Both the position numbers and the translations under genes were made by a program. A stretch of DNA of 64,000 nucleotides from Patescibacteria group bacterium (GTDB lineage: Bacteria > Patescibacteriota > WWE3 > UBA101185 > UBA10185): assembly GCA_026004595.1 (NCBI GenBank), contig BPJL01000006.1, positions 12,299 through 76,298 on the forward strand, written 5' to 3'. Positions 400 through 63,083 of the stretch are shown one piece after another (positions within the stretch are counted from its first letter, which is position 1; every line of letters begins with the position of its first letter). The notes beneath the pieces were generated by a model that saw only the letters and a program-made list of their open reading frames with translations, searched no databases and was not told the DNA's origin.

Positions 400-1047
400 A
401 TGGACTTAATTTCGTTTTTCATATCATTTATCTTGCATATAGATAAGCATTTGGGGGAGATAATCAGCCAGTACGGAACTTTTGCATATTTAATTCTATT
501 TCTAATAATATTTGTAGAAACAGGGCTTGTTTTTACGCCATTCCTACCTGGGGATTCTCTTCTTTTTGCTGCTGGGGCTTTTGCCGCAATCGGCTCTTTT
601 GATATTTTTTTGCTTTTCTTCCTTTTGTGGGGAGCTGCTGTTTTGGGTGATACCGTAAATTACTGGATAGGACATTTTTTTGGGGAGAAGATAATTAGCA
701 ATAAAAGGATACCGATAAAACAGGAACATGTTGAGAAAACCCAGGTATTTTATGCAAAGCATGGAGGCAAGACAATTTTTTTGGCTAGGTTTGTGCCTAT
801 CGTAAGAACTTTTGCACCTTTCGTTGCTGGGGTAGGAAAGATGAGGTACGGATATTTTATTGCTTATAACATTTTTGGTGGTTTTGTCTGGGTTGCTAGT
901 TTTTTGTCCGCGGGATATTTTTTTGGCAATATCCCTCAGGTTAAGGAAAATTTTTCTCTAGTCATTTTCACGATAATATTTATCTCGATTCTGCCGATGA
1001 TCGTTGAGGGCGTCAAAAGTAAACGTTCAAAAAAGCAAGAATCCTAA
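400..1047 (+). CDS. DedA/VTT-domain membrane protein
   Basis: Multi-TM protein with the FLPGDSLLFAAGAF and ARFVPIVRTFAPFVAG motifs typical of DedA/SNARE-associated proteins. Confidence 0.8.
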   Translation: MDLISFFISFILHIDKHLGEIISQYGTFAYLILFLIIFVETGLVFTPFLPGDSLLFAAGAFAAIGSFDIFLLFFLLWGAAVLGDTVNYWIGHFFGEKIISNKRIPIKQEHVEKTQVFYAKHGGKTIFLARFVPIVRTFAPFVAGVGKMRYGYFIAYNIFGGFVWVASFLSAGYFFGNIPQVKENFSLVIFTIIFISILPMIVEGVKSKRSKKQES

Positions 1048-1679
1048 TTGTTTTTATATCTTCTAATTACTCCGGTTACCACTCCTTGAATGCTTAGGCT
1101 TCTCGAGTCGACGTAGAGCGGATCCATATTTTTGTTGGCAGGTTGAAGTCTTATTTTTCCATCTTTCTCTCTATAAAAAGTTTTGAGTGTAGCGAATTCA
1201 TTGTCTATCAAGGCCACAACTATCTGACCATCCGACGCTGTATTTTGTTGTTGTATTACAACATGATCGCCGTCAAAAATTCCCATATCTATCATTGAGT
1301 CTCCCTTTACTTGCAAAACGAAGCATCGTTTATGCTTGGAGACAATGTCCGAGCTGACTGTAACGGTTGCAAGAGGGTTTTCTACAGCTTCAATAGGTTC
1401 GCCGGCGGCTATGTATCCAACCAACGGGAGCTCAACAGCGGAAAGATTGGAATTGAAAGAGTGGTCCAGTATCTCTATTCCTCTAACAGAGCCTTCATAT
1501 TTTTTTATCATTCCCTTTTTCTCCAGAGCTTGTATGTGCTCATGCACTGTTGCTAGTGAAGAAAGACCCATAGAATTGGCAATTTCCTGTAAAGTAGGTG
1601 AGTGGCCGTTGACCTGGATGTACTGGGAAATAAAATCTAAAATTTGCTTCTGCTTTTTATAAAGTGTTACGGGGCTCAT
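1044..1679 (-). CDS. lexA: LexA transcriptional repressor (SOS regulator)
   Basis: N-terminal winged-helix (LQEIANSMGLSSLATVHEHIQALEKKG), Ala-Gly cleavage site (GYIAAGEPIEA), S24 peptidase Ser/Lys motifs (VKGDSMID ... ATLKTFYRE). RBS GGAGGG upstream. Divergent from uvrB. Confidence 0.9.
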   Translation of the reverse strand: MSPVTLYKKQKQILDFISQYIQVNGHSPTLQEIANSMGLSSLATVHEHIQALEKKGMIKKYEGSVRGIEILDHSFNSNLSAVELPLVGYIAAGEPIEAVENPLATVTVSSDIVSKHKRCFVLQVKGDSMIDMGIFDGDHVVIQQQNTASDGQIVVALIDNEFATLKTFYREKDGKIRLQPANKNMDPLYVDSRSLSIQGVVTGVIRRYKNN

Positions 1680-1849
1680 TAAAAACCCTCCTTGGCCTGA
1701 AAATATTTACGGATTTTCTTTGGTTTTTAGCTATTTTCATAGTACCGAAAAATATACGAAGATGTCAAGACCCTGTTTTCTAATACCGTTAGATATACAA
1801 GGCAGTAGGTAAGAGCGAGCCAAAGAAAACCCAAAAATATGCTACAATT

Positions 1850-3850
1850 TTGAAGATGTTTAAGTTAGTTTCTCCATTTAAGCCTACAGGCGATCAGCCC
1901 GAGGCAATAAAACAGCTGACAGAAAATTTAGAAAGAGGTGTTAAAGACCAGGTGCTGCTGGGTGTTACAGGAAGCGGAAAAACCTTCGCGATTGCCAATG
2001 TTATTGAAAAAGTTCAGAAACCCACTCTCGTGATTTCTCACAACAAAACATTGGCGGCCCAGCTTTATCAAGAGTTCCGTGAGTTTTTTCCGGAAAACGC
2101 GGTTGAGTATTTTGTAAGTTACTATGATTATTACCAGCCAGAAAGCTACATACCCGCTACAGATACATATATTGAAAAAGATTCGGATATTAACGAAAAA
2201 ATAGATAAGCTTAGGCTTTCTGCGACAACTTCGTTAATGACGAGAAAAGATGTGATAGTTGTGGCCTCTGTGTCCTGTATTTACAATTTGGGGAGTCCTG
2301 CGGAATATTCAAAAGTAGCGATAGAGCTAAGGGAAGGTATGAAAATTCGCAAGGCCGATCTTCTGAAGAGACTTTCTCAAATATATTACGAACGTTCGGA
2401 ATACGATTTTATTAGAGGGACTTACAGAGTGACCGGAGATGTTGTTGATGTGTATCTTGCGTATCAGGATTACGCGGTAAGATTAGAGGTATCTGACGAT
2501 GTTTTGATGAGCATAAATTATATGGATCCTCTGACAGGGGGCTATGTAGATGATCTGCCGCAAGGATTGGTCATAATTTATCCTGCCAAGCACTATGTCG
2601 CCCCCGAGGAAACCCGCAACCAAGCCATTTCAGAGATTAAAAAAGATCTTCAGGCAAGGTTAGAGGAGCTTAAGAAGAACAACAAAAATTTGGAAGCATA
2701 CAGGCTCGAACAAAGAACCAATTACGATTTGGAGATGATAGAGGAGCTGGGGTATTGCAAAGGAATAGAAAATTATTCGCGCTATTTTGATGGAAGAAAC
2801 CCTGGGGAACCGCCCCATACCTTGATTGAATATTTTCCTAAAGACTTTTTATTGGTTATAGATGAGTCGCACATAACAATCCCGCAGATTAGAGGTATGC
2901 ATAACGGGGATTACTCAAGAAAGAAGACGCTGATTGACTATGGTTTCAGGCTTCCATCAGCTCTTGATAATCGTCCGTTAAATTTTGAAGAATTTTTGTC
3001 AAAAATAAATCAGACAATATATGTAAGCGCAACTCCAGATCAGTGGGAATTGGAAAGATCCGACGGAAAAGTGACCGAGCTCTTGATAAGACCTACCGGT
3101 ATAGTTGATCCAAAAGTTACGGTTATTCCTACCAAAGGGCAGATTGAGGATTTGCTGAAAAGGGTGAAGGAAAGAGCGGCTAAAAAGGAAAGAGTTCTTG
3201 TGACAACTTTAACAAAACGAATGGCAGAAGAGATGTCTGCCTATATGACGGAGAGGGGAATAAAGGTTACATATCTTCATTCTGATATAGATACTTTGGA
3301 GCGGACCGATATTTTGGATAATTTGAGGAAGGGAAAATATGATGTTCTTGTGGGAATTAATTTATTGAGGGAGGGTTTAGACCTGCCAGAGGTGTCCTTG
3401 GTAGCGATTTTAGATGCCGATAAAGAGGGCTTTTTAAGGTCCGAGACCTCGCTTATTCAAGTTATGGGCAGAGCGGCTAGACACATTTCCGGGGAGGTTG
3501 TTATGTATGCTGACAATATTACCGGAAGCATGAGAAGGGCGATTGAAGAGGTGGAAAGAAGGCGGGAAAAGCAAATAAAGTACAATGAAGAGCACGGTTT
3601 GACACCTTCCCAGATTGTTAAGCCGATCAGAGAAAAGCTGATTGATGAGGAGATTGAAGAAGCTTTGGAGACAGCGCGCGGCAGAAAAGTGTATGAGGAT
3701 TTAGATTACCAACAATTACCTCCAAACGAGCTCAAAAAAGAAATAAAGAATTTGGAAAAAGAAATGTTGTATGAAGCGGAAGTGTTAAATTTTGAAAGAG
3801 CCGCGGTCTTGAGAGACAAAGTAAGGGAACTAAAAAAAATTTTAGGTTAA
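1850..3850 (+). CDS. uvrB: Excinuclease ABC subunit B
   Basis: GDQPEAIKQL, Walker A GVTGSGKTF, helicase motifs, C-terminal UVR coiled coil (EAEVLNFERAAVLRDKVRELKK). Confidence 0.95.
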   Translation: MKMFKLVSPFKPTGDQPEAIKQLTENLERGVKDQVLLGVTGSGKTFAIANVIEKVQKPTLVISHNKTLAAQLYQEFREFFPENAVEYFVSYYDYYQPESYIPATDTYIEKDSDINEKIDKLRLSATTSLMTRKDVIVVASVSCIYNLGSPAEYSKVAIELREGMKIRKADLLKRLSQIYYERSEYDFIRGTYRVTGDVVDVYLAYQDYAVRLEVSDDVLMSINYMDPLTGGYVDDLPQGLVIIYPAKHYVAPEETRNQAISEIKKDLQARLEELKKNNKNLEAYRLEQRTNYDLEMIEELGYCKGIENYSRYFDGRNPGEPPHTLIEYFPKDFLLVIDESHITIPQIRGMHNGDYSRKKTLIDYGFRLPSALDNRPLNFEEFLSKINQTIYVSATPDQWELERSDGKVTELLIRPTGIVDPKVTVIPTKGQIEDLLKRVKERAAKKERVLVTTLTKRMAEEMSAYMTERGIKVTYLHSDIDTLERTDILDNLRKGKYDVLVGINLLREGLDLPEVSLVAILDADKEGFLRSETSLIQVMGRAARHISGEVVMYADNITGSMRRAIEEVERRREKQIKYNEEHGLTPSQIVKPIREKLIDEEIEEALETARGRKVYEDLDYQQLPPNELKKEIKNLEKEMLYEAEVLNFERAAVLRDKVRELKKILG

Positions 3851-3898
3851 ATCTTCCGAGAATCAGGCTTTTTATTCGTACTTAGGTTCAGTCCATAT

Positions 3899-6130
3899 TT
3901 GCGGGTGCTAGTTTCGTCTTATTTATTGACCCTCGTCTGTCTGTCTAATAGAATCGATGAAGAGCAGATGAGAAATACTCCAATCAAAGTTGGTAAATCC
4001 TTAATCAAAGCTGTTAAAGCCATAGGTTACTTTTTCCTTTACATTTACGATGGCTTGCTCATATACATTAAAAAGTTCAAATACGCCGGCGTAAAGAAAA
4101 AAGCGGCCTTCCGCGGGATTAAAAGTTTTGCTAATGGGTTAGTTTCATTTTTTAGAAAAGGCGCCGGTATTTGGTTGGAATTAATCAAATGTTCAAAAGC
4201 GTTTATCGCTGGCTTTTTAGCGTCTGTAATATTCATTTTTATCCCGTACATAGTAAATACGTGGTTTAGAGAACTCCCAAGTCCAGAAATGCTTTTAGTA
4301 GCCCAAAAGTACGGCGCCACCCAAATTTTTGACAGAAACGGCGTACTACTTTACGAAATCTATGCAGATAAAAAATACGAACCAGTAAAGCTGGAACAGA
4401 TTCCTAAAAATGTTGTTAACGCCACCATAGCTGTTGAGGATTCCCTTTTTTACCTGCACAAAGGGCTAAGGCCTGACAGCATAATTCGTGCTTTTACCAA
4501 AACTTTCTTCAACGGCAGTAAACAGGGAGGGTCAACGATCACTCAACAATTAGTTAAAAATGTTCTTCTTACCCCCGAGAGAACTTTTTCCAGAAAGGTA
4601 AAAGAAGCAGTTTTATCTGTAATGGTTGAGGCAAAATATTCCAAAGAGGAAATACTTGAGATGTATTTGAATAATATTTCTTATGGCGGCAACGCTTGGG
4701 GTATCCAATCGGCCTCTCAAAAGTATTTCGGGAAGAATGTTTGGGAGTTAAACCTGGCTGAGGTTTCAATGTTGGCGGGGCTTCCTTCCTCTCCCTCTCT
4801 ATACTCTCCTTTTAGCGACATTCAAAAGGCTAAAGATCGTCAGAAGTATGTTCTAAAAAGAATGGCCGGTTTGGGTTACATAACTTTAGAAGAAGAGCAA
4901 GAGGCGTTGGTAGAGGATTTAGTTCTTGTTCCTCAAAAAGATTTTATTGCCGCCCCGCATTTTGTGAATTTTGTACGGCAGGGGTTGGAAAAAATGTATG
5001 GGAGCCGCTTTGTGAATGGAGGGGGGCTTAAAGTGGTCACGACACTAGACTATTCCCTCCAGCAAAAAGCGGAAGAAATCGTTTATGATGAGGTACGAAA
5101 GGGCGCCGCGTACGGTTTTTCCAACGGCGCCGCTGTGGTTTTGGATGTGAAGAACGCCGAGATGTTAGCGTATGTGGGATCGGCGGATTATTTTTCGCCG
5201 AAATGGGGCGCTTTTGATGTTGTTACGGCTTTAAGACAGCCCGGCTCCTCTATTAAACCGGTTACATATTCTTTGGCTTTTGCTTCCGGAATGACTCCAG
5301 CGACGACAATTCAGGATTCTCCGGTTGTTTACACTTTTCAAGGCGCGGAAGCTTACAGGCCAGTTAATTATGATGGAAAGTTTCACGGAACTGTTACCTT
5401 AAGGGCGGCTTTAGCCAATTCCTATAATGTTCCTGCAGTAAAATTAGCTAAGATTGTGGGGCCCGACGACATTGTTGCGCTCGGAAGGGATATGGGCCTT
5501 ACAAATTGGGAGGTAGATGGTTCATATGGGCTTTCAATTACCCTTGGAGGCAAGGAAGTAAGGCTTTTGGATTTGACCAATGTATATGCAACTCTCGCCC
5601 GAAAGGGATCTTTTGTTGAACCGTCCTTCCTTTTATCTGTTAGAGATGGGAGGGGGTATGAGATTTATTCAAAAAAGCAATTTTATCCTAAACAGGTGAT
5701 TTCTGAAGAAGTGTCCTATTTGATTTGGCATATACTCTCCGATAATGATGCGAGAATTCCAGCTTTTGGAACAAGAAATTTTCTAAGTCTTTCGGGTTAC
5801 AAGATAGCTGCAAAAACAGGGACCACAGATCAAATAAAAGACAATTGGACTTTCGGATACACCCCAAGTTACGTAGTTGGAGTATGGGTTGGCAACAACG
5901 ACAACACGCCGATGAACAGACGCATGGCTTCGGGTTTGACAGGCGCCGCCCCGATTTGGAATAGGATAATGGCCGAGGTTCTTCACGGGAAACCAAATGA
6001 AATTTTTGATACGCCAAGCGGAGTGTTCGAAAAGAAGGACGAAAAATGCGGCATGACGGAGGTTTTTATAAAAGGATCGAAAGTGCCTGAAAATTTGTGT
6101 TCCAAAGTGGGAAAAGAAAAGAAGGACTGA
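3899..6130 (+). CDS. Class A penicillin-binding protein (bifunctional transglycosylase/transpeptidase)
   Basis: GT51 motifs (EDSLFYLHKG, GGSTITQQLVKN), transpeptidase SSIKP, SYN and KTGT motifs, N-terminal TM. An alternative start lies at 3968. Confidence 0.85.
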   Translation: MRVLVSSYLLTLVCLSNRIDEEQMRNTPIKVGKSLIKAVKAIGYFFLYIYDGLLIYIKKFKYAGVKKKAAFRGIKSFANGLVSFFRKGAGIWLELIKCSKAFIAGFLASVIFIFIPYIVNTWFRELPSPEMLLVAQKYGATQIFDRNGVLLYEIYADKKYEPVKLEQIPKNVVNATIAVEDSLFYLHKGLRPDSIIRAFTKTFFNGSKQGGSTITQQLVKNVLLTPERTFSRKVKEAVLSVMVEAKYSKEEILEMYLNNISYGGNAWGIQSASQKYFGKNVWELNLAEVSMLAGLPSSPSLYSPFSDIQKAKDRQKYVLKRMAGLGYITLEEEQEALVEDLVLVPQKDFIAAPHFVNFVRQGLEKMYGSRFVNGGGLKVVTTLDYSLQQKAEEIVYDEVRKGAAYGFSNGAAVVLDVKNAEMLAYVGSADYFSPKWGAFDVVTALRQPGSSIKPVTYSLAFASGMTPATTIQDSPVVYTFQGAEAYRPVNYDGKFHGTVTLRAALANSYNVPAVKLAKIVGPDDIVALGRDMGLTNWEVDGSYGLSITLGGKEVRLLDLTNVYATLARKGSFVEPSFLLSVRDGRGYEIYSKKQFYPKQVISEEVSYLIWHILSDNDARIPAFGTRNFLSLSGYKIAAKTGTTDQIKDNWTFGYTPSYVVGVWVGNNDNTPMNRRMASGLTGAAPIWNRIMAEVLHGKPNEIFDTPSGVFEKKDEKCGMTEVFIKGSKVPENLCSKVGKEKKD

Positions 6131-6170
6131 AATACATCTTCACAAACCCGAACTTTTACCGTAAAATCAT

Positions 6171-9170
6171 TTGGTCATGGAAAACACCTCGCTTACACAT
6201 ATTTTGGTCAGGGGCGCCCGCCAACATAATCTGAAGAATATAGATTTGGATATCCCAAAAAATAAGATGGTTGTCTTTACGGGAGTTTCGGGATCGGGGA
6301 AGTCCTCTTTAGCTATGGATACAATTTACGCCGAGGGGCAGAGGCGTTACGTTGAAAGTTTGTCGGCCTACGCTCGTCAGTTTTTGGGCGTTATGGACAA
6401 GCCTGATGTGGACAAAATAGAAGGACTTTCACCAGCAATAGCAATAGATCAGAAAACGACTTCAAAAAATCCAAGATCTACGGTTGGTACTATTACCGAG
6501 ATTTATGATTATCTTAGGCTTCTTTATGCTCGAATAGGACACCCCCACTGTCCTCAATGTGGAAGGGAGATACAAAGACAGAGTTCAACCGAGATTGCCC
6601 AGACAATCTTGGATTTGATCTCCGGTTACAAAGATTTTAAATCAGAGAAGGGGACGAGGTTTTTTATTTATTCCCCGATTGTTAGAGATAGAAAGGGAGA
6701 ATATTCTGCTCTTTTTGAAAATCTCAGGAAGCAGGGAGTGCTTCGCGCTAGAGTGGATGGCGAAGTTATGAGCTTAAAGGAAAAATTTGATTTGATAAAG
6801 ACCAACAAGCATACGATCGATGCTTTAATCTCAAGACATTCGGTAAATTCTAAAAAAATGGCTGACAGCGGCGAGGCTAAGAGTGTTTTTTCAGAGATTT
6901 TTCAATCGGTTGAAACCGCTCTTCGACTTAGCGGCGGAACAGTTATATTAAGCGTGATAAAGGGGAGCTCTTTTGATTTTCCTGAAAACCCTAAAGACAC
7001 CGAAGACCACCTTCTTTCCGAGAACTTCGCGTGCCCGGTTTGCAACATATCTCTTCCGGAGATTGAGCCCAGGACATTTTCTTTTAACTCACCGCACGGC
7101 GCATGCCCAGCTTGTGACGGTCTCGGGATGCAGTTAAAGGTTAATGAGGGCGCTGTTGTAAATCCCAGGCTTTCTATATCTGAGGGTGGAATTCTACCTT
7201 GGCAGAAACTTTTTGAGCATCAAACCTGGACGCAGAATGTGATAAAAAAAGTGGCTGAAGTTTATAATTTTTCTCTTGATAAACCCATAAAAGATTTGTC
7301 GGAAGAGGCGCGCAGAATAATAATGTACGGAGCCGGGGACAAAAGATTTCGAGTAACTTACAGAGGACAGAGTGGCCACGAGCATACATACGAGGCCGGG
7401 TACGAAGGTGTTGTTCCCAACTTAATGAGAAGGCATAGAGAAACCCAATCCGAATATATAAGAAATGAGATAGAGAAGTATATGGTGAACGAGGATTGTC
7501 CCGTATGCAAGGGGTCGCGCCTTAAAAAGGAATCTTTATCCATAGTGGTTGACTCAAAACCCATAACTGAAATCACAGAGGCGTCAATAAAGGAAAACAT
7601 TGAATGGATAAAAAAGCTTGATAAGGTACTTAATGAAAGGGAGCACAAAATAGCTGAAGGAATTCTCAAAGAAATAACTTACCGCCTCAACTTTCTAAAG
7701 GATGTCGGTTTGGATTATTTGACATTAGCCCGTTCCTCATCTCAACTATCAGGCGGAGAAGCTCAAAGGATAAGGTTAGCGTCCCAGATAGGTTCAGGTT
7801 TGTCGGGGGTATTGTACGTTTTAGACGAACCCTCAATAGGTTTGCATCAAAAGGATCAAGCAAAACTTATACGAACCCTGCACCAGCTCAGGGATTTAGG
7901 TAATACTGTGTTAGTTGTTGAGCATGACGCTGAAACAATGCTGGAAAGTGACTACATTTTTGATTTTGGACCTGGGGCAGGAGCAAATGGGGGTAAGGTT
8001 GTCGCGGAGGGAGCTCCTGAAGAGGTTATGAAAAATCCCAATTCTTTGACGGCAAAATATCTCTCCAAAAAACTGATAGTTGGAAAAAACGTAAAGAAAG
8101 ATCATGCGAAAGGCGAGATGTTTATGAATTTAGACTCTGTTTCTAAACCGGAAAAGTCGATGGAAGGAAAGAAGTTGATACTAAGAGGGGCGACAGGAAG
8201 GAATCTGAAAAACATAGATTTGACCATTCCTTTGGGAAAGTTTGTCTGTGTGACGGGGGTTTCGGGATCGGGAAAGTCGACATTAATAATGGATACTTTA
8301 TACCAAGCCCTGCGCCAAAGTTTCGGGTTAAAGCTTGAGCAAAGGCCCGAACCGTTCAGGGAGATAGAAGGGGCAGAGAATATTACGAACATAATCGCGA
8401 TAGACCAGAGTCCAATCGGAAGAACCCCAAAGTCGAATCCTGCAACGTATACCAAAGTGTTTGATCACATACGCGAACTTTTTTCACAAACCCAGGAAGC
8501 CAGAGTAAGGGGCTACGGACCAGGACGATTTAGTTTCAATGTGAAGGGTGGAAGGTGTGAGGCCTGTGGGGGAGAGGGCCAAATTAAGATAGAGATGCAG
8601 TTTATGCCCGATGTTTATGTTAATTGTGAAGTTTGCCAAGGAAAGAGGTATAACAGAGAGGCTCTTGAAATTTACTACAAAGGTAAAAATATCGCAGATG
8701 TTTTGGATATGACGGTTGAAGAGGGGATGACATTTTTTGAAAATGTTCCTCAAATTCGAAGACGAATAGAAACCTTGTACGATGTTGGGTTAGGCTACAT
8801 TAAACTTGGTCAGCCGGCTCCAACCTTGTCGGGAGGAGAGGCTCAGAGAGTGAAGCTGGCTTTAGAACTATCCAAGAGGGCAACCGGAAGCACATTTTAT
8901 ATTCTAGATGAACCCACAACAGGGCTGCACTTTGCCGATTTGGAAAATCTAATCACAATCTTCAGAAGGCTTACCTCCAGAGGGAATACAGTTGTAGTTA
9001 TAGAGCACAATTTGGATGTTATAAGCAATTGTGACTACGTTATTGATATGGGTCCAGAAGGGGGAGAAGACGGCGGAAGAATTATTTTTCATGGAACTTT
9101 AGATGAGCTAAAAAATCACAAAACATCTTATACGGCCGAGGCGTTAAGAGGGTATTACAAGAACCGGTAG
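6171..9170 (+). CDS. uvrA: Excinuclease ABC subunit A
   Basis: Two ABC ATPase modules (GVSGSGKSSLA, GVSGSGKSTL), LSGGE signature motifs, CxxC zinc fingers (CPVC, CEAC, CEVC). Confidence 0.95.
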   Translation: MVMENTSLTHILVRGARQHNLKNIDLDIPKNKMVVFTGVSGSGKSSLAMDTIYAEGQRRYVESLSAYARQFLGVMDKPDVDKIEGLSPAIAIDQKTTSKNPRSTVGTITEIYDYLRLLYARIGHPHCPQCGREIQRQSSTEIAQTILDLISGYKDFKSEKGTRFFIYSPIVRDRKGEYSALFENLRKQGVLRARVDGEVMSLKEKFDLIKTNKHTIDALISRHSVNSKKMADSGEAKSVFSEIFQSVETALRLSGGTVILSVIKGSSFDFPENPKDTEDHLLSENFACPVCNISLPEIEPRTFSFNSPHGACPACDGLGMQLKVNEGAVVNPRLSISEGGILPWQKLFEHQTWTQNVIKKVAEVYNFSLDKPIKDLSEEARRIIMYGAGDKRFRVTYRGQSGHEHTYEAGYEGVVPNLMRRHRETQSEYIRNEIEKYMVNEDCPVCKGSRLKKESLSIVVDSKPITEITEASIKENIEWIKKLDKVLNEREHKIAEGILKEITYRLNFLKDVGLDYLTLARSSSQLSGGEAQRIRLASQIGSGLSGVLYVLDEPSIGLHQKDQAKLIRTLHQLRDLGNTVLVVEHDAETMLESDYIFDFGPGAGANGGKVVAEGAPEEVMKNPNSLTAKYLSKKLIVGKNVKKDHAKGEMFMNLDSVSKPEKSMEGKKLILRGATGRNLKNIDLTIPLGKFVCVTGVSGSGKSTLIMDTLYQALRQSFGLKLEQRPEPFREIEGAENITNIIAIDQSPIGRTPKSNPATYTKVFDHIRELFSQTQEARVRGYGPGRFSFNVKGGRCEACGGEGQIKIEMQFMPDVYVNCEVCQGKRYNREALEIYYKGKNIADVLDMTVEEGMTFFENVPQIRRRIETLYDVGLGYIKLGQPAPTLSGGEAQRVKLALELSKRATGSTFYILDEPTTGLHFADLENLITIFRRLTSRGNTVVVIEHNLDVISNCDYVIDMGPEGGEDGGRIIFHGTLDELKNHKTSYTAEALRGYYKNR

Positions 9171-9174
9171 TTTA

Positions 9175-10896
9175 CTAACGAACCTTAATAGTGTAACTTT
9201 TTCCGCTAAAGTCTTTCACCGCGAATTGATCTGCATTTTTTTCTAAATATATTGATGCTTTCTGACTTGGTGCTAAGATCTTTCCTTGCAAATCGTATAT
9301 AAAATATCCGCTGGTGTTATCTATAATGTATCTGGTCTGTCCTTGTATAAGTTTGATGGGGTTAAAATTAAGTGCTTTTTTAATGGTAATTTGCGGGGTG
9401 GCGTCGCTGTCGTTTTTCGATGTCGCTGCGAAATCAATGTCAACTAGTTTTTCATTGTCGGAATATCTGTATGCGCCAGCTGGGTAGGGATACTCTGAAC
9501 TTTTGCCTTTTATCACAAAAGCAAAGTGGTTGGTGTCAAGTTTAGTGAAATAGTCAGTACCGGATGTGGTTCCCCATGTAGGATCAACCTGAACCCAACC
9601 ATAGAACGGATCGTAGTATTCTGCCCATGAATGAAGGGTGTCCCCGCCTTTTAGACTTATTGAGATGGGTTTTTCAATATTATCATTTGTGAAAGCATAA
9701 CCCTCAATTTCTCGTGAAGGTATACCCATTGCTCTTAAGGTTCCCACAAATAGATCGGAAAACTCCATACATGTAAAAGACCCCCTTTGGGTAAGAGCTG
9801 CTACCGCGCCTTTTCTTTCAACTGTAGTGTTTTCAGCCGCAGAAGTATCATAGGTTAGGTTGGATGTTATATAGTCGTATACTCGTTTGGCATTTTGAGA
9901 TACGTTCAGCTCTGGATCAAAAAGTGAATCGGCAAAACTTTTTATTTCCTCATTTTTCGACTCCCAGTATTTTTGATTTTTTGCGTACTCTTTTACAAGC
10001 GACTTAGGCAAATTCTCAATTTTTCCACCTAAGTCGGTATTTATTTGCCGTCCAAGTATTTTTGCGGATCCTGTTAGGGTGATTTCCAATTTGCTTCTGG
10101 GTCCGACCCAAAACAGGGCAAGAGCATTCCCATCCCCATCAAGCCTGATCTTTCTTGGTCGGGGAGTAATGTTCTCGTATTTAACTTGTTGTATATTAAT
10201 TATATCCGGGGGAAGGGCTACTTCGTACACTGATCCGATTATTCTATTATTTTCCAGTTGGTATTTAATTCTAAAGTTTAACGATTGGTATTTGCCGAAT
10301 GCCGCGGTAATGCCTTTTGAAGGATAGTTTTCTTTTACGAACGTATATACCCTTTTCCCATCCTCGTATTTTTCGGTTGCTGGGTTCGGAGAGACAAAAA
10401 TTTTTGGCCCCATAGAGTCGGGGACGGAAAGTACGATATTGTAAATTGTTGTGGTTTCGGGAGCGTCTATCCCCTGTATATATATGTTCCACACATCTCC
10501 GACTTTTGAAGCTATTCCTTTTGTCTTGTAGGTGAGATTAACAATATTTTGCTTTCCCTCTCCAATTGAGTATGTTGAAAACGGAACAATAACTGTTGTT
10601 TCATCTTTTGAGGGATTTTCTTTTCTAACCTCGGCTTTTTTTCCATTTGTTTGAGCTATGATATCGTATATGTCCATATATTTTGTCTTAAAAGAATAGG
10701 TTGTTGGTACTACGTTATTTTTAAGACTAGTTATAATTGTGTTTTGGGTGACAAAGGTTTCTCCCGAGCTCTGCACGTCATATCTTATGTCGTAATTTAT
10801 TATGAAGTTTTCCTCGGTTTGAGAATAAGCGGATTTACCAAGTGCTGTAAGCAAAAATAGTGCAACTGCCGCCTTCAAAAAAGCGTTTTTAAACAT
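9175..10896 (-). CDS. Secreted transglutaminase-like (Cys-His-Asp) domain protein
   Basis: Signal peptide MFKNAFLKAAVALFLLTALGKSAYSQ. Core GSFTCMEFSDLFVGTLRAMGIPSREIEGYA ... HSWAEYYDP ... GWVQVDPTWG carries the transglutaminase-like catalytic triad. Confidence 0.7.
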   Translation of the reverse strand: MFKNAFLKAAVALFLLTALGKSAYSQTEENFIINYDIRYDVQSSGETFVTQNTIITSLKNNVVPTTYSFKTKYMDIYDIIAQTNGKKAEVRKENPSKDETTVIVPFSTYSIGEGKQNIVNLTYKTKGIASKVGDVWNIYIQGIDAPETTTIYNIVLSVPDSMGPKIFVSPNPATEKYEDGKRVYTFVKENYPSKGITAAFGKYQSLNFRIKYQLENNRIIGSVYEVALPPDIINIQQVKYENITPRPRKIRLDGDGNALALFWVGPRSKLEITLTGSAKILGRQINTDLGGKIENLPKSLVKEYAKNQKYWESKNEEIKSFADSLFDPELNVSQNAKRVYDYITSNLTYDTSAAENTTVERKGAVAALTQRGSFTCMEFSDLFVGTLRAMGIPSREIEGYAFTNDNIEKPISISLKGGDTLHSWAEYYDPFYGWVQVDPTWGTTSGTDYFTKLDTNHFAFVIKGKSSEYPYPAGAYRYSDNEKLVDIDFAATSKNDSDATPQITIKKALNFNPIKLIQGQTRYIIDNTSGYFIYDLQGKILAPSQKASIYLEKNADQFAVKDFSGKSYTIKVR

Positions 10897-10936
10897 GGGT
10901 AAATGCTACAATAACTTCGTGATTTCCTCAAATATT

Positions 10937-12286
10937 ATGGAAAAAGTCAAAAAGCTGCCTCAAACCCCAGGAGTCTACATCTACAAAGATAAAGGCGGGG
11001 AGGTTATATACGTGGGAAAAGCGAAAAATCTCAAATCTCGTGTGTCTTCGTATTTTCGGATTAATCTTGACCGCCGATCAAAAACATTCGCTCTGGCGCA
11101 AAATATCCACTCAATAGATTACATAAAAGTTGAAAGTGAGCTGGAGGCATTAATATTGGAGGCGGAACTCATTAAAAAATACCTGCCCATTTATAATGTA
11201 AATTTGAAAGATGACAAATCTTTTCTATACATTGGGATCAGAAATTCTAAGGAAAGTGTGGGAGGTAAAGTAATTTCTATCCCCACTGTTGAAACGTTTA
11301 GAAAAGGTAACGCCGAAAGATACAAGTATCGTTATGGTCCTTTTCCTGACGGCAAGACTGTTAAACAGTTAGTGAGGATGTTGAGAAGAATGTTTCCCTT
11401 TAAGGATTGCAGTACCTCGAAGTTTTGCAGATATAAGAAATTGAATACCCCCTGCCTGTGGGGGCACCTAAATTTGTGTCCAGCGCCATGTGTGTATGAA
11501 GAGGCAGTAATACCGGTTTGCAAAAGCAATATCAGATCTATTAAAAATATTCTTTCGGGGGGAACCAGCAGAATTATTGAAAAATACAACCGTCAAATGA
11601 AGAGATACGCCGCTGCCAGAGATTATGAGAGCGCGGCATCCTTGAGGGACCTGCTTCAGAGGTTTGAGTATGTCAGACAGTCGTTTCGTTTACCCAGAGA
11701 TTACATTGAAAATCCTTATCTTATCGATGATCTGGCCAAAGAGGCCCTTGAAAATATAATATCTTTTTTGCCATTTCTAAAAGAAATACCGACAAGAATA
11801 GAGTGCTATGATATTTCTAACATATCCGGTAAGGAAGCAGTAGGTTCTATGGTCACTGCGATTAACGGAAGGATAGATAAAAGCGGTTATAAGAGGTTCA
11901 GGATTAGGACAAAACAAACTCCCGACGATTTTTTAATGCTTTATGAAGTTCTGTATAGGAGGCTTTCGCACGAGACGGATGAAAAGAAAAAGAGCTGGGG
12001 GCTTCCTTCTTTAATAGTTTTGGACGGCGGGAAGGGGCAGCTTTCTTCGGGTCTTAAGGTTTTAGAAAAGTTGAATCTTGATGTTCCAATTATTGGTATT
12101 GCCAAACATCATGAAACAATAGTGTATAACGATAACGGGTTTCATGAAACCACTCCCGCCCTTGATCTGCCCGGTATGAGACTGCTTTTGAACTTAAGAG
12201 ATGAAAGCCACAGGTTTGCACAAAAATATCACCATGCCCTTCGTAGCAAGCAAGTATTTGGAAGGATAGTACAAAAGAAGCTATAA
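10937..12286 (+). CDS. uvrC: Excinuclease ABC subunit C (short form lacking the C-terminal HhH domain)
   Basis: GIY-YIG motif (GVYIYKDKGGEVIYVGKAKNLKSRVSSYF), C-terminal endonuclease motifs (LIVLDGGKGQL, RDESHRFA). Listed ORF begins at 10895; ATG at 10937 (MEKVKK) avoids overlap with the divergent gene. Confidence 0.9.
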   Translation: MEKVKKLPQTPGVYIYKDKGGEVIYVGKAKNLKSRVSSYFRINLDRRSKTFALAQNIHSIDYIKVESELEALILEAELIKKYLPIYNVNLKDDKSFLYIGIRNSKESVGGKVISIPTVETFRKGNAERYKYRYGPFPDGKTVKQLVRMLRRMFPFKDCSTSKFCRYKKLNTPCLWGHLNLCPAPCVYEEAVIPVCKSNIRSIKNILSGGTSRIIEKYNRQMKRYAAARDYESAASLRDLLQRFEYVRQSFRLPRDYIENPYLIDDLAKEALENIISFLPFLKEIPTRIECYDISNISGKEAVGSMVTAINGRIDKSGYKRFRIRTKQTPDDFLMLYEVLYRRLSHETDEKKKSWGLPSLIVLDGGKGQLSSGLKVLEKLNLDVPIIGIAKHHETIVYNDNGFHETTPALDLPGMRLLLNLRDESHRFAQKYHHALRSKQVFGRIVQKKL

Positions 12287-19782: not shown

Positions 19783-20967
19783 ATGCAAGTTAAACCTGAG
19801 ATAGAACGTTTTGCAAAAATAAGGGTTGTTGGTGTCGGGGGTGCCGGAGGTAATGTAATCAACTCAATGATAGAGTCTAATCAGATAAAAGGTGTGGAGT
19901 TTGTTGCTATAAACACAGACGCCCAGGATTTATCCATAAATAAGGCTGTAATAAAGATACCGATAGGTCAAGAGATAACTCAAGGTTTGGGGGCAGGTTC
20001 AAATCCCGAAATTGGAAGAAAGGCGGCCGAGGAGTCTGTGGATGTGATAAGGAGCAATCTTGAGGGAGCAAACATGGTTTTTATTACCGCTGGATTAGGC
20101 GGGGGAACGGGCACTGGTGCTTCTCCGGTTGTGGCTAGGATAGCAAGAGAATCGGGCGCTTTGACAATAGGTGTGGTAACCAAGCCTTTTAATTTCGAAG
20201 GAATTCAAAGGATGCGAGCGGCAGACAGGGGAATAGCCGAGCTAAAAAAAGAAGTAGATGCATTGATAACAATACCGAATCAGAAACTTTTGGAGGTGGC
20301 TGATGAAGACATGTCTATACTTGAAGCATTTAGGCTTTCGGATAGTGTTCTCAATCAGGGTGTACAGGGAATTTCGGATTTGATTGTTATGCCCGGCCTA
20401 ATCAATGTCGATTTTGCTGATGTTAAAACTATAATGAAAGACGCCGGAACAGCGCTTATGGGAATCGGAATCGGCACAGGAGAAAATAGAGCAGAGGTAG
20501 CGGCAAGGGCAGCGATTTCCTCTCCCCTGCTCGAACAATCTATCGAAGGTGCTAAAGGCATTCTATTTAACATTTCAGGCGGTCCCGATCTTACAATGAG
20601 GGAAGTAGACCGAGCGGCTAATATAATAAGGAGCATTGCAAGCGAAGAAGCCGAAATCATATTTGGAACTTCTATCGATGATGAACTTACAGGTCAGTTG
20701 AAAATTACGGTTATTGCTACGGGTTTTGAAGTTCCTGAAGAAGACGATTCAGTTGCTGGATACGTTGAGAAACACTATGCTCAAATTCAAAGAAAAGATA
20801 AACCCGAACAGTCTCCGTATCAGTTTTCTTCTCAAGGACAGAAAACAGAGACTTCGAGTGAAGAAAAAACGCCAAAGCTGCCTTCAGAAATGTGGAAGCC
20901 CGAGGATGCAGAGGAAGGAGATTACGGAACCGGTTTTGATATCCCAACTTTTCTTAGGCAAAAATGA
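19783..20967 (+). CDS. ftsZ: Cell division GTPase FtsZ
   Basis: [11 protein letters not shown] and tubulin signature [15 protein letters not shown]. Confidence 0.95.
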
Positions 20968-21160: not shown

Positions 21161-23698
21161 ATGTTGCCGGTTCGTGAGATGAATAATCTTATGAGCAGTT
21201 TTTTATACCGTGAAGACCCGTCTGTATTTTCTAGAAATACGGATATAGAATTTTCTGAAAATGCGAGAAAAATTCTTGAAAAAAGATATCTAAGAAAAGA
21301 CGAGAACGGTGTAGTTGTCGAAACCCCCGAACAAATGTTTGAAAGGATAGCTAATGTTATTGCTGAACCGGATAGACCCTACGCAGATGTTGAAAGATCA
21401 AGAACCGAATTTTACAATTTGATTTCTTCTAAGAAGTTTTTTCCCAACTCCCCAACATTTACAGGAGCTGGTACACCTCTAGGTCAGCTCGCTGCCTGCT
21501 TCGTTTTGCCCATATCTGATGATATGGGGAAAGAGAAGGATGGTATTTTTTCAACACTCAGGGTGGCTTCATTAATTCAGCAAAGCGGGGGTGGGAACGG
21601 CTTTTCGTTTTCTAGATTAAGACCTAAAGGTTCCAGAGTTAGGGCAAGCAATGGTATAGCTACAGGTCCCGTAGGTTTTATTAGAGTTTACGATGCCGCG
21701 TTTGGTGAAATTGCTCAGGGAGGTGTAAGGAGAGGGGCAAACATGGGAGTTCTTCGCGTTGACCATCCCGATATAAGAGAGTTTATTGAGTGTAAGTCTG
21801 TGGAGGGAAGGGTTTCAAATTTCAATTTATCAGTTGCGGTGACTGATAAATTTATGGAAGCTGTCAAAAATGATGAAACTTACGAACTGATTGATCCCCA
21901 TACTTTAAAAGTAACTGAAACTCCCAAGGCAAGAGAAATTTTTGACCTAATTGTTGAAAGTGCTTATAGAAATGGTGAGCCTGGGGTTTTGTTTATAGAC
22001 ACCGCAAACAGACAAAATCCTGTTCCCCATCTGTACGAACTGGAGGCCACAAACCCCTGCGGTGAGCAGTGGCTTGGCCCATATGAAAACTGTTGCTTGG
22101 GATCAATAAATTTGGCCGAACATTTGACAGCGGAGGGAAAGCTGGATTGGGAAGAGTTGAGAAAAACAATAATTTCTTCCACAAGATTCTTGGATAATGT
22201 TGTTGAGGCGAATAGGTACATTCCAGCAGTTCCTGAAATTAAAGAAGCGGCAATGGATGTCAGACGAATCGGCCTTGGCTTTATGGCGCTTGCCGACGCG
22301 ATGTATTCAATGGGTATAAGATATGGCAGTGACGAAGGACAAGAATTTGCCGCACAGGTTTCTGAGTTCATAAGATACTATTCCATGAAGACCTCAATAG
22401 AGTTGGCGAAGGAAAGAGGTAGTTTCAGGAAAATTAGAGGCAGTATTTATGATCCCGAGAATCTTAGATGGACTCCGCCCAAACCTCTTAAGGAATATAC
22501 AAGAGATTTTGGGCGACCTTCGATAGATTGGGCCTCTGTTATAGAAGGAATAAAAATGTACGGAATAAGAAATGGCGCTCAAACTACTATAGCCCCAACA
22601 GGGACAATATCAACCGTAGCGGGCGTTGAGGGGTATGGATGCGAGCCTGTTTTTGCTTTGGCTTACTACAGAAACGTTTACCAATCGGCCGGGGACGAGG
22701 GCAAAATGACTCTAACCTACGTAAGCCCCTTCTTCCAAAAAGCTCTTGATAAGTTGAATCTGTCGGAAGAGGCGAAGATAAAAATCATAGAAAGTGTTAT
22801 AGAAACAGGAACGTGTCAAAACATAACGGAACTCCCCCAGCATATTAGAAATACCTTTGTTGTTTCTGCAGACATAAAACCCGAAGAACATATAATGATG
22901 CAGGCGGCAATTCAGGCCTTTGTGGATAATTCTATTTCTAAAACTTGTAACTTCCCAGAGAATGCTACCAAAGAAGATGTTGCCAAAGTTTATATGCTTG
23001 GGTGGGAGATGGGCTGCAAAGGTTTGACAGTTTACGTTACTGGTAGCAGACAAGAAGTTGTTCTCGAGACTAAGTCAACAAAGGTACAAAAAAGTGAAAA
23101 AGAGATGCCGGAGCCTGTAAATAAAGAAATAGTTTTGACAGACAAACCCGCAGAGCATGTTTTGGTAATGAGAGGGTACAAACTCAATGGAGCTACATAC
23201 AAAGTGAAAACGCCTCAGGGGAATGCATTTATCACAATTAACAAAGACGAAACAGGTAGACCGCTTGAAGTTTTCTTGAATGTTGGCAAGGCCGGAAGTG
23301 ATGTTGCCGCTTTAGCAGAAGGGTTGGGTAGGCTTTTGTCAGGGTGGCTTAGAATGCCTAACTTTAGTTTTGAAGTTGTGAGGGAGATTATAGTTCAGCT
23401 GGCGGGGATTGGAGGATCGAAATCGATCGGTTTCGGTAAGGATAGAGTAAGTTCACTGCCTGATGCTGTGGCAAAAGTGCTCGCAGATGAGTTCGGTTTT
23501 ACTGTAAAGGCGAATGGATCCAACGGAAATGATTACCTGGCGGAGAGTAAAGGTGCGGTGAAAGAGCGGGTCAATTCTAGACAGGTGGGTTTTCAGGCCT
23601 ATTCTAACACCGACATGTGTCCCGAGTGTGGCAACTACACTTTAGTTCTTGAAGAAGGGTGCTCCAAATGCTACCAATGCGGATTTAGCCGATGTTAA
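21161..23698 (+). CDS. nrdJ: Adenosylcobalamin-dependent (class II) ribonucleoside-diphosphate reductase
   Basis: Class II RNR active-site motif [22 protein letters not shown]-terminal Cys zinc ribbon ([22 protein letters not shown]). Confidence 0.9.
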
Positions 23699-52213: not shown

Positions 52214-52351
52214 ATGGCGGAGAAGAAAAAAGCTATACAAAAATTTGCAAACGAAGACATGAGGAGACAGATAGTGGAAAAACGATTGGATGGTGCACTA
52301 AAAGATTTTGAGGCCTTTAACCTTCTACAGAATAAATCACGAAAATTTTAA
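52214..52351 (+). CDS. Small (45 aa) helical protein, hypothetical
   Basis: MAEKKKAIQKFANEDMRRQIVEKRLDGALKDFEAFNLLQNKSRKF; in an AT-rich spacer; below the track cut-off. Confidence 0.25.
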   Translation: MAEKKKAIQKFANEDMRRQIVEKRLDGALKDFEAFNLLQNKSRKF

Positions 52352-52702: not shown

Positions 52703-53551
52703 ATGAAGAAGTACTTAATTATCGTGTGTACATTAGTTCTCTTAGTAACTTCCTGCGGTCCTCTTCCCGAAATGGAAAGCATCATGGCGCAACCAAGGCC
52801 TGACGCCCCTGCGAGTGATTCAGGTAGTGAGGTTTCATTACCGGTTACACCAGGTCCTGAGGTTCACATCAGTCCCGAACCGGTTCCTGTACCTCCTCTT
52901 CCTGTAGCCACCCAGTATGCACTAATTGTGCAGGCCTGGGGAAACTATCTGACTCCGATCAAAGATACCATTAGATCTGAGGAGGATCTGAGGGAGGAGT
53001 GGCGGAGATTCGGGGAGATGAGTCTTCAGGTCGGAGACCGGAGGAGTAAAATCCGCGAAATCTTTGAAGGGTTCAGCGAAAACGACTGGTCCCAGATAAG
53101 AGAAGCAGGGGAAGAACTCGCAAAAGACGGCGCTCTAACCACAGCAGTAATTTATCTTAGGGGTTGCAAAACCACCTGCGCGTCAATATTTAGCGCACTA
53201 TGGTGGGCTTGCGCCCATCTGGCAACGGGAGAGAATTGGATTAAAATCCCTGAAGGGATGATGACCAACCACCCGATGCCGGAGTTATGTGGCAGGACAT
53301 TCAACTGGGAATACCTTGTCGATATCCTGGACACCAGATGCCCGGGGTATTCCGTTGAATATCGTGGATCGACGATCGTAATCCGCAAGTTAGTCCGTTA
53401 TTCAGATAACCGATACGAACTGACTTGGGACGACGCCCAAACCTTAATAGTGGTTGGCGGAGTTTTAACTGCGGCCACGGTTGTCGGAATTGTTGTATTA
53501 TCGGGCGGTACTGCGGCCCCCGCTTTTGCGGTAGTGCTTCTTGTACCGTAA
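52703..53551 (+). CDS. Lipoprotein with C-terminal TM anchor, hypothetical
   Basis: Lipobox LLVTSC; Pro-rich linker; C-terminal helix LIVVGGVLTAATVVGIVVLSGG; RBS GGGAGG. Confidence 0.6.
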   Translation: MKKYLIIVCTLVLLVTSCGPLPEMESIMAQPRPDAPASDSGSEVSLPVTPGPEVHISPEPVPVPPLPVATQYALIVQAWGNYLTPIKDTIRSEEDLREEWRRFGEMSLQVGDRRSKIREIFEGFSENDWSQIREAGEELAKDGALTTAVIYLRGCKTTCASIFSALWWACAHLATGENWIKIPEGMMTNHPMPELCGRTFNWEYLVDILDTRCPGYSVEYRGSTIVIRKLVRYSDNRYELTWDDAQTLIVVGGVLTAATVVGIVVLSGGTAAPAFAVVLLVP

Positions 53552-55642: not shown

Positions 55643-56078
55643 AGCTTACCAATTTTACCGCAGTATTGCTTTTGCATAAAGTTTATTTGAGCAAAATCAA
55701 AACTAGTGGTTATGAGCTTTTTTAATCAAACTTGGTTTTTACCTCTAAATTTGGTGGTACTGCTGGAAAAATTTTATTTGGTATCAGGATTGTAGGCGAA
55801 GATGGTAATTTTATAGTTGTGGTTGCAGCCTTCTTCCGGATGACCGCAGGGTACGCAGCTTCAGCTGGGTTTTTTATGCTAGGCTATCGTTGGGTTTTCA
55901 GAAAAAAAGGAAAATCTTATATGGTATGATAGGTTGTTTGCCACCAAGGCTTAAAGCATAGAAAGCCCTTTTTGGGAAATTTTGTTTCTGTTTTTATATA
56001 GCTTCAGTTTTGCAGCTTCCTTATCTATATACATATTTACTGTAATTAGATTTTTGTATTAAAAACCCTTTTTGATAT

Positions 56079-56106
56079 TGACAAATCAATCCTTAATGAT
56101 TAAATT
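56079..56106 (+). promoter_or_regulatory. Candidate sigma-70-like promoter (TTGACA-17-TAAATT)
   Basis: TTGACA at 56079-56084, 17-nt spacer, TAAATT at 56101-56106, in AT-rich DNA about 300 nt upstream of the 56407 gene. Confidence 0.3.
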
Positions 56107-56406
56107 ACTCTACTTATAGGTTAGGGGAGTACAAGATATAGACTTATAGTAATGTGTGCGTTTGAGTGTTGTTGCTACACACAATCGGAGATTCATATAA
56201 ACTTTGTTCTAGTGTTTTTGCCCTTCTGCCGAAAAGATATTTCATAACAGATTTGGGAGTTTTTTTCAGCCTTCGGAGAGTATGTACTAAAATATATGGG
56301 TCCTTGGTATTTGCATGAGGTTGTGTGCGGAGTGTTTTTGTTTGAAAGTATTCCGGGCACAGGCTCAATAAAGCCAACCTAAATAAATATTGAAAGGAGA
56401 GCTGTT

Positions 56407-56706
56407 ATGGTCAAGAGCCACGTCAGCCGGGATCCGGGTATATTTGAGCTGATAAACAGAAACCTGCGATTGGTGCTTAAGTTGTTAAAGGACAAACGTG
56501 TTCCTTTTCTTCTTAAGCTTTTACCAATAATAGGTGGAGTGTGGCTAATTTACCCCGACCTTATCCCGGGACCGCTGGACGATGTTTTGGTTATCTACCT
56601 CACGTTTTATGGTTTCATTGAACTGGCTCCGGATGAAGTTGTAAAAGAACTTCGTAAGGAAGTTAGTCATGGAAAGGAAAACGTGATAGAAGGCGACATC
56701 GACTAG
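56407..56706 (+). CDS. DUF1232 (YkvA-like) membrane protein
   Basis: RVPFLLKLLPIIGGVWLIYPDLIPGPLDDVLVIYLTFYG matches the DUF1232 core; RBS GAAAGGAG. Confidence 0.55.
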   Translation: MVKSHVSRDPGIFELINRNLRLVLKLLKDKRVPFLLKLLPIIGGVWLIYPDLIPGPLDDVLVIYLTFYGFIELAPDEVVKELRKEVSHGKENVIEGDID

Positions 56707-56712
56707 CTACCA

Positions 56713-56750
56713 AGAGAGAGCTTTTATATTCAAAAACAAAAGCTCTCTCT
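56713..56750 (+). terminator. Terminator-like perfect 13-bp hairpin
   Basis: AGAGAGAGCTTTT (56713-56725) pairs with AAAAGCTCTCTCT (56738-56750); no clear U-tract. Confidence 0.45.
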
Positions 56751-56818
56751 GTATCCTTAGGAATTTTGGATCTTGATCATTTTGTTTGTCCGTCCCGGCC
56801 ACTTGCGCCGTGCGGATG

Positions 56819-56929
56819 TACTTTGAAAACACAACAAGAAAGAGGTGGTTGCCCTACTTAGGTTTGCACCTTCGAGACTTTCAGCATGCTGGAAGTTTTG
56901 CAGGTGCGTAGCCTAATAAGAGGCAGCCA
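56819..56929 (+). promoter_or_regulatory. Repeated leader element, copy 1 (box A, box B, hairpin, box C)
   Basis: Box A 56819-56842, box B GGTTGCCCTACTTAGGTTTGCACC, hairpin GCACCT (56866-56871) / AGGTGC (56902-56907), box C GGTGCGTAGCCTAATAAGAGGCAGC. Same architecture as copy 3. Confidence 0.55.
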
Positions 56930-57023
56930 TATCAATAAGTGAAAGGAGTAAAAAATTGGAAAATACCTGTTTCCTAGTTTCGAATTGCCAGTAAGTCAAC
57001 CATTGAATAAAACGGAGGTAAAA

Positions 57024-57281
57024 ATGCAAACGTTAGTTAGCAACATAATTTTTTTGAGTGTGCTGGTATTCGCAGCAGCTTTGGTGATCTTTGGATTGCT
57101 GAAGTTCATCAAGGTACTTAAAGGAGAGCTCTCTGTAGGTGAGGCTCTGATGGCCATAGGCGGTGTGGTAATCGGTGCAGCAGTTGTAATATGGGCTGCG
57201 ACCGATTTCAACGGGAGCAGGATCATAATCGATACGGTTGGAAAGTGGATCATCCAGATTCTAACCGAGCCCCTAGGCTAG
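57024..57281 (+). CDS. Small 2-TM protein (VirB2/TrbC pilin-like topology)
   Basis: 86 aa from the ATG after RBS AACGGAGG: hydrophobic leader (IIFLSVLVFAAALVIFGLL), charged loop, second hydrophobic segment (ALMAIGGVVIGAAVVIWAA). Listed ORF begins at 56985. Confidence 0.5.
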   Translation: MQTLVSNIIFLSVLVFAAALVIFGLLKFIKVLKGELSVGEALMAIGGVVIGAAVVIWAATDFNGSRIIIDTVGKWIIQILTEPLG

Positions 57282-57288
57282 GTTAGCT

Positions 57289-58869: not shown

Positions 58870-58870
58870 T

Positions 58871-59182: not shown

Positions 59183-59191
59183 AAACTTGAA

Positions 59192-63048: not shown

Positions 63049-63083
63049 ATAAATAGGAAATATAAAAAAGAAAGGAGGATGGA

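Follow-up and report, generated by a model that had tools for sequence, protein, structure and literature searches.

In this study, a 64,000-nucleotide (nt) stretch of contig BPJL01000006.1 from a Patescibacteria group bacterium of the WWE3 lineage (hereafter the window) was analysed, in which lexA and the excision-repair genes uvrB, uvrA and uvrC lie close together. LexA probably represses three separate promoters there, those of lexA, uvrB and uvrA, through a direct-repeat operator, CCRAA-N6-CCRWA, with an 11-bp period. The cluster therefore reads as three separately repressed promoters plus unregulated neighbours, not as one SOS-controlled supra-locus, since uvrA and uvrC appear to have promoters of their own, the intervening transglutaminase-like gene is antisense, and no sites were found at the promoters of uvrC, of the transglutaminase-like gene or of the class A penicillin-binding protein (PBP) gene. 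Gene identities were computed in silico, as were the motif and its positions, conservation and specificity.

The earlier note on this DNA had recognised neither a CTGT-N8-ACAG nor a GAAC-N4-GTTC box between lexA and uvrB, and had supposed that any operator there would be of a different type. Both statements were borne out. At one mismatch or fewer, neither GAAC-N4-GTTC nor the direct repeat GTTC-N7-GTTC had a match in the lexA-uvrB spacer, and CTGT-N8-ACAG produced a single one-mismatch match (1773-1788), which is at chance level given the 17 matches observed vs. 14.6 expected window-wide. An operator-like, non-canonical motif was, however, located in this control region. The note had also taken the lack of a palindromic motif shared with other SOS promoters as grounds for giving up its proposal; as the motif proved to be a direct repeat, this was read as the lack of a shared motif rather than of a shared palindrome. 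A shared motif was found, at uvrA and at the orthologous promoters, but as a direct repeat and not as a palindrome.

The motif was derived from 80 comparison loci, one genome per species, of WWE3 and Amesbacteria-like lineages, whose LexA proteins are 58-89% identical to that of the window. Aligned lexA upstream regions contained an invariant block, TTGACA-tcTTCGkkTAwtwTTCGGTA-nTAT, that is, a direct repeat TTCG-N7-TTCG filling the −35/−10 spacer of the lexA promoter, and a second conserved element right after the lexA −10. A matrix made from the lexA −35/−10 site alone scored the window sites O2 and O3 (Table 1) at 6.3 and 5.0 bits, and was replaced by uvrB and combined matrices because it was over-fitted to TTCG and the adjoining −10. 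To avoid circularity, Gibbs sampling was run on 23 uvrB promoters, from other genomes only, in which uvrB lies >300 bp from lexA. The sampler found tACCAAAnAAAACCCAAAa in 21 of the 23, directly 5′ of the extended −10 TGnTAnAAT, and this element is the lexA repeat on the opposite strand, CCRAA-N6-CCRAA.

In a scan of the window with the uvrB-only matrix, the top match was 1819-1836 in front of uvrB (24.3 bits), followed by 1707-1724 in the lexA leader (13.7 bits); 1744-1761, in the −35/−10 spacer of lexA, was ranked twentieth. The combined matrix drew on 170 sites, none of them from the window genome (consensus TACCGAATAAAACCCGAAGAT, 18.6 bits, with CCRAA at positions 3-7 and 14-18); it placed the three sites of the lexA-uvrB spacer at ranks 1-3 and the uvrA promoter site at rank 6. 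In 200 dinucleotide-preserving shuffles, 0.035 matches of ≥20 bits were expected per window vs. three observed. The plain pattern CCRAANNNNNNMCRWA had six matches in the window vs. 3.3 expected, of which three fell in the 176-bp lexA-uvrB spacer and one in the uvrA promoter. Independently, a repeat search returned 1703-1723 and 1820-1840 as inverted copies with 86% identity over 21 nt, corresponding to O2 and O3.

All four predicted operators occupy promoter DNA (positions given relative to the inferred start sites). O1 fills the −35/−10 spacer of lexA, at about −31 to −11, and its offset from TTGACA is identical in >50 relatives, while O2 lies in the lexA 5′ leader, at about +8 to +28. O3 adjoins the extended −10 of uvrB and covers the −35 region, at about −37 to −17, and O4 fills the spacer of the uvrA promoter and overlaps its −10, at about −28 to −8. 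A degraded copy of O1 and the lexA −10 (1776-1798) is probably non-functional, a relic of local duplication; it lies in a lineage-specific insertion that is missing from relatives with shorter spacers.

The conservation and specificity of the motif were then evaluated on orthologous promoters, with a site defined as a match of ≥14 bits to the combined matrix. Sites were present in 55/60 lexA, 51/54 uvrB and 32/35 uvrA promoters, and in none of nine PBP, ten transglutaminase-like and 12 uvrC promoters, for which even the best scores were negative. With the uvrB-only matrix, 87% of the best matches in 79 lexA upstream regions were above the 99th percentile of shuffles, and these matches sit at two fixed offsets from TTGACA. 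The corresponding value for uvrA upstream regions was 51%, all sense-oriented, and that for the uvrC, transglutaminase-like and PBP regions was 0%. Across the lineage, uvrA promoters read ACCCrAAnnAAwACCGTAnAAT. In a held-out clade, with LexA 58-63% identical, 17 of 20 lexA promoters scored ≥15 bits.

Matches elsewhere were rare. Away from the starts of lexA, uvrB and uvrA, the 1.34 Mb of related loci yielded only 11 matches of ≥17 bits; at least two of them (loci L045 and L050) are uvrA promoters with mis-set starts, and another two at contig ends (L016 and L035) probably are as well. An alignment of 18 short spacers showed the promoter hexamers and the repeats as the sole conserved islands. 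In several genomes, one repeat lies between back-to-back lexA and uvrB promoters, where it would serve both.

A different arrangement was observed in two more distant Patescibacteria, L083 and L084, where an inverted repeat of the same half-sites lies in the −35/−10 spacer of lexA, about 90-60 nt before the lexA start (ACCCGAAGCTTTCGGGT in L083 and ACCCGAAGACTTCGGGT in L084), while the uvrB promoters retain the direct repeat. This may represent a switch of operator architecture inside one lineage, which would agree with the known plasticity of LexA site architecture.

Several points weigh against the proposed LexA regulation. The ortholog counts are partly circular, since promoters of lexA, uvrB and uvrA also served to train the combined matrix; the cross-tests with the uvrB-only matrix and the held-out clade lessen this circularity and do not remove it. 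The score of O4 is by itself not significant in the window, where 1.07 matches of ≥14 bits are expected, and O4 rests on its position and conservation, not on score alone. A tblastn search of the window and the related loci (1.49 Mb) with an approximate E. coli RecA query found no RecA gene, and the regulon test therefore rests on lexA, uvrB and uvrA. Further, the organism is uncultured, and we infer from the DNA that LexA would be the binding protein, that binding would repress, and that RecA would trigger cleavage. Finally, the operator may be one more instance of the direct-repeat motif published for Patescibacteria.

The protein itself has the features of a canonical LexA, as judged from its domains and residues. 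The winged-helix domain (PF01726, 66.1 bits) spans residues 6-67 and is followed by a C-terminal S24 peptidase domain (PF00717, 107 bits); the A91-A92-G93 cleavage site and the Ser128/Lys166 dyad are invariant in the LexA family alignment, and the protein aligns over its full length, from residue 6, to solved LexA structures. The annotation of its closest relatives reads candidate division WWE3 or Patescibacteria. In the proposed mechanism, LexA would bind a pair of half-sites offset by one turn of the helix (11 bp), and, because every operator overlaps core promoter elements, LexA bound at O1-O4 would block RNA polymerase at the lexA, uvrB and uvrA promoters. Upon DNA damage, RecA-stimulated self-cleavage at Ala92-Gly93 by the Ser128/Lys166 dyad would derepress uvrB, uvrA and lexA itself. 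The uvrC, PBP and transglutaminase-like genes would be transcribed from operator-free promoters of their own, and would be clustered by conserved synteny near cell-wall and division genes rather than by shared control.

As the link between LexA and the motif comes from sequence, and as the motif is unlike every canonical LexA box searched, another transcription factor could read the repeat at lexA, uvrB and uvrA, with LexA binding elsewhere or having lost its DNA-binding role. However, lexA itself has the sites that are strongest and most universal, with two in each promoter, as is the hallmark of autoregulation, and the genes concerned are SOS genes of the classical type. LexA's DNA-binding domain hardly varies within the clade that keeps the motif, and the spacer holds no conserved element besides the repeats and the promoter hexamers. 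A different reader of the repeat is thus unlikely.

Whether the cluster is under one control was evaluated from its gene order. The earlier note had named lexA, uvrB, the PBP gene, uvrA, a transglutaminase-like gene and uvrC, with the three uvr genes on the same strand within 11 kb, and profile searches upheld all of these identities and placed the uvr genes on the plus strand. The uvr genes are parted by the PBP and transglutaminase-like genes as it had stated, except that the latter lies on the minus strand. Its remark that uvr genes are dispersed in most bacteria was overstated, as a LexA-controlled uvrB-uvrA operon is the norm in Firmicutes, for example Bacillus subtilis. The divergence of lexA and uvrB was also right, but the spacer is not the 170 bp of 1680-1849 given before; it runs from 1680 to 1855 (176 bp), because uvrB starts at ATG 1856 and not at TTG 1850.

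The arrangement recurs across the WWE3 and Amesbacteria-like loci, counted over those with enough flank (63 for lexA-uvrB, and 49 for the other features). The uvrB gene is divergent from lexA in 58/63 loci, with a median spacer of 185 bp, uvrA follows downstream on the uvrB strand in 45/49, the transglutaminase-like gene is present in 35/49, and the PBP gene lies between uvrB and uvrA in 29/49. The order in Amesbacteria-like loci is uvrB-uvrA-transglutaminase-uvrC, with no PBP. Because of this recurrence, the clustering is not chance but an old conserved synteny, and is not peculiar to the window genome. The gene for the transglutaminase-like protein, which has a signal peptide, is found between uvrA and uvrC throughout WWE3, on the strand opposite to the uvr genes; in most Amesbacteria-like loci with the cluster it also lies there, on the uvr strand.

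The SOS-controlled supra-locus for NER (nucleotide excision repair) suggested by the earlier note survives in that lexA and uvrB share a control region whose motif recurs at uvrA, and not in that the 11 kb would form one unit. A single block of uvrB, PBP, transglutaminase-like and uvr genes driven from the lexA-uvrB region would fit the contiguity of these genes and the common strand of the three uvr genes. In addition, no terminator was predicted between uvrB and the PBP gene, where the fold was no better than those of shuffles, so that transcription may run on from uvrB into the PBP gene. However, uvrA is served by a separate promoter and operator that relatives also keep, and uvrC by a conserved extended −10 promoter of its own with no operator; the PBP gene is absent from this position in many relatives, including Amesbacteria; and the transglutaminase-like gene is antisense and convergent with uvrA. 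Control of the whole block from one region is accordingly improbable. The stop codons of uvrA and the transglutaminase-like gene are 4 nt apart on opposite strands (9170-9175), which leaves no room for terminators, so that their convergent transcripts would overlap.

Highly improbable is a lineage-specific feature of a few strong promoters, such as an A-rich UP-like or curvature element rather than a regulator site, which would account for the A-richness, the 11-bp phasing and the constant nearness to promoter hexamers, but is at odds with the variable position of the motif relative to the hexamers (within the spacer at lexA and uvrA, 5′ of the −10 at uvrB, past the start site at lexA O2), with its occurrence in both orientations, and with its absence from other promoters in these loci, among them the uvrC promoter with its near-identical TGCTACAAT. 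Repression by LexA at lexA, uvrB and uvrA thus remains the preferred explanation, and the features on which it draws are collected in Table 1.

Table 1. Genes, promoter elements and predicted LexA operators of the lexA-uvr cluster (window coordinates; scores are from the combined matrix unless noted; SD, Shine-Dalgarno sequence; aa, amino acids)
Feature	Position	Strand	Details
lexA	1044-1679	-	211 aa; TIGR00498, 206.8 bits (cut-off 110.95); LexA_DNA_bind and Peptidase_S24
lexA SD AGGAGGG	1686-1692	-	7 nt ahead of ATG
Predicted operator O2	1705-1725	-	AACCAAAGAAAATCCGTAAAT (minus-strand reading); 23.6 bits, rank 1; position conserved in relatives
lexA promoter	1739-1768	-	TTGACA (1768-1763), 18 nt, TACTAT (1744-1739)
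Predicted operator O1	1743-1763	+	TACCGAAAAATATACGAAGAT; 23.0 bits, rank 2
Decayed duplicate of O1 and lexA −10	1776-1798	+	74% identical to 1735-1757
Predicted operator O3	1818-1838	+	AGCCAAAGAAAACCCAAAAAT; 20.9 bits, rank 3; 24.3 bits, rank 1 with uvrB-only matrix
uvrB extended −10	1840-1848	+	TGCTACAAT; 7 nt ahead of ATG
uvrB	1856-3850	+	664 aa; NF003673, 1031 bits (cut-off 743)
PBP promoter-like site	3926-3954	+	no operator
Class A PBP gene	3968-6130	+	720 aa; Transgly and Transpeptidase
uvrA promoter	6139-6167	+	TTCACA, 17 nt (AACCCGAACTTTTACCG), TAAAAT
Predicted operator O4	6146-6166	+	ACCCGAACTTTTACCGTAAAA; 14.9 bits, rank 6; exact match to plain pattern
uvrA	6177-9170	+	997 aa; NF001503, 1406 bits (cut-off 1147)
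Transglutaminase-like gene	9175-10896	-	573 aa; Transglut_core; signal-peptide-like N-terminus
uvrC extended −10	10904-10912	+	TGCTACAAT, same as that of uvrB; no operator nearby
uvrC	10919-12286	+	455 aa from GTG 10919; TIGR00194, 345.7 bits (cut-off 285.45)

Two further gene starts were examined. The uvrA start is ATG 6177, 9 nt past its −10; the public gene call begins at 6267 (967 aa) and misses the first 30 residues, which include the conserved N-terminal strand ahead of Walker A. For uvrC, GTG 10919 is most likely the start, as it is conserved in relatives and the alternative ATG 10937, which would give 449 aa, is not. Downstream of uvrC follow secG, murA, mraY, ftsW, murG, ftsQ, ftsA and ftsZ, so that the repair genes adjoin a cell-wall and division gene cluster.

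The three uvr genes each start 6-9 nt past the −10 hexamer with no Shine-Dalgarno sequence (1840-1858, 6162-6179 and 10904-10921), and their mRNAs are therefore predicted to be leaderless; the −10 is of the extended TGn type at uvrB and uvrC. This −10-to-start spacing is kept in relatives, including that of the leaderless GTG of uvrC. In contrast to the uvr genes, lexA has a strong AGGAGGG ribosome-binding site.

UvrC of the window contains GIY-YIG, UVR and RNase H-like domains and is a short form (449-455 aa) without the C-terminal (HhH)2 domain and without roughly 70-90 residues of the middle region. It ends about 8-15 residues beyond the RNase H-like domain match, and can be aligned to the structure 2NRT only as far as residue 166 of 220 in the chain. 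No HhH family matched at E-values up to 1, and the idea that (HhH)2 had been split off into the open reading frame (ORF) after uvrC was rejected, as this ORF encodes a small membrane protein. All 12 complete UvrC orthologues in the related loci are 406-445 aa long and end at an RDEAHRF..YHH..R motif; loci with the short form include L013, L044, L056, L068-L073, L081 and L082. A length of 400-480 aa was likewise seen in about 110 of the 150 top-ranking representatives of 50%-identity clusters, which align end to end with the window UvrC, while canonical UvrCs (about 600 aa) align to it in two pieces. In the literature searched, no discussion of the short form was found.

Other matches in the window were also considered. 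The fourth-best match to the combined matrix, TACAGAATAAATCACGAAAAT at 52326-52346, scored 17.3 bits, with 0.39 matches of ≥16 bits expected. This match is located at the 3′ end of a 45-aa ORF and about 50 nt 5′ of the −35 of a promoter-like site, which is followed by two small or unknown genes (a 77-aa ORF from about 52458, and 52703-53551); the match could be a further LexA target or due to chance. The matches at 41606 (13.5 bits) and 59291 (12.4 bits) were treated as chance because their scores are within chance expectation, and so was that at 33136, inside a coding region. Ribonucleotide reductase (21161-23698) was considered as an SOS target and rejected, with no site upstream; the plain-pattern match at 20804-20819 falls within ftsZ, outside any promoter context, and reaches 8.9 bits. 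The region 56000-64000 contains a run of sizeable ORFs without a Pfam match (e.g., 57289-58869 and 59477-61417) and an M23 peptidase gene, and the G+C content reaches 0.48 locally at 60-62 kb.

Taken jointly, these observations could be read as a LexA operator class, CCRAA-N6-CCRWA, undescribed for WWE3 and Amesbacteria and bound head-to-tail by a Gram-positive-like LexA, together with a PBP made damage-inducible by read-through from uvrB, excision repair by a UvrC without (HhH)2, and leaderless uvr mRNAs; that all of these parts hold at once is rather unlikely. If the PBP gene were damage-inducible, DNA damage would be coupled to cell-wall synthesis beside a division cluster, in organisms with no known SulA- or YneA-type checkpoint. 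The repeat itself would provide a concrete LexA operator with coordinates for an uncultured small-genome lineage, and appears to add a well-supported example to those in which LexA recognises a direct repeat instead of a palindrome, which bears on how site architecture changes in evolution by means of a flexible LexA dimer. The regulatory logic, with uvrA, uvrB and lexA inducible and uvrC not, is that of textbooks and thus no surprise to a specialist.

The SOS circuit is therefore ordinary and the non-palindromic operator unusual, yet a direct-repeat LexA motif has already been reported for Patescibacteria, according to a citing paper: PMC7739468 lists Sanchez-Osuna et al. (2017), on Patescibacteria, among works on independently evolved direct-repeat LexA recognition. 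That SOS network (Sanchez-Osuna, Barbe and Erill, 2017, Environ Microbiol 19:3465) belongs to the same superphylum and the same regulator, and, as far as the description in PMC7739468 goes, its direct-repeat architecture matches the window operator. PMC8565304 reports a direct-repeat LexA motif, GTTC-N7-GTTC, for Alphaproteobacteria. Like the repeat described here, it repeats a 4-5 nt core head-to-tail every 11 bp over promoter elements. Unlike the GTTC core of Alphaproteobacteria, however, the WWE3 core is TTYGG (CCRAA), shifted by one base, with a variable base before TTC and a G after it. The Gram-positive (Cheo) box, CGAAC-N4-GTTCG, shares its CGAA core with the WWE3 half-site, but its half-sites are inverted whereas those of WWE3 are head-to-tail, and GAAC-N4-GTTC is absent from the lexA-uvrB spacer.

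In Bacillus subtilis, the uvrBA operon is LexA-repressed and lexA is autoregulated through more than one box. Similarly, uvrB and uvrA of the window are neighbours and predicted LexA targets; unlike in B. subtilis, they would be served by separate promoters and operators, with the PBP gene between them. In E. coli, LexA represses uvrA and uvrB and not clearly uvrC, and lexA is autoregulated with two boxes; the window resembles this in that the damage-recognition subunits UvrA and UvrB are predicted to be inducible and lexA to be autoregulated. While E. coli has dispersed uvr genes, a palindromic CTGT-N8-ACAG box and a UvrC with the (HhH)2 domain, WWE3 has clustered uvr genes, a predicted direct-repeat operator and a UvrC without (HhH)2.

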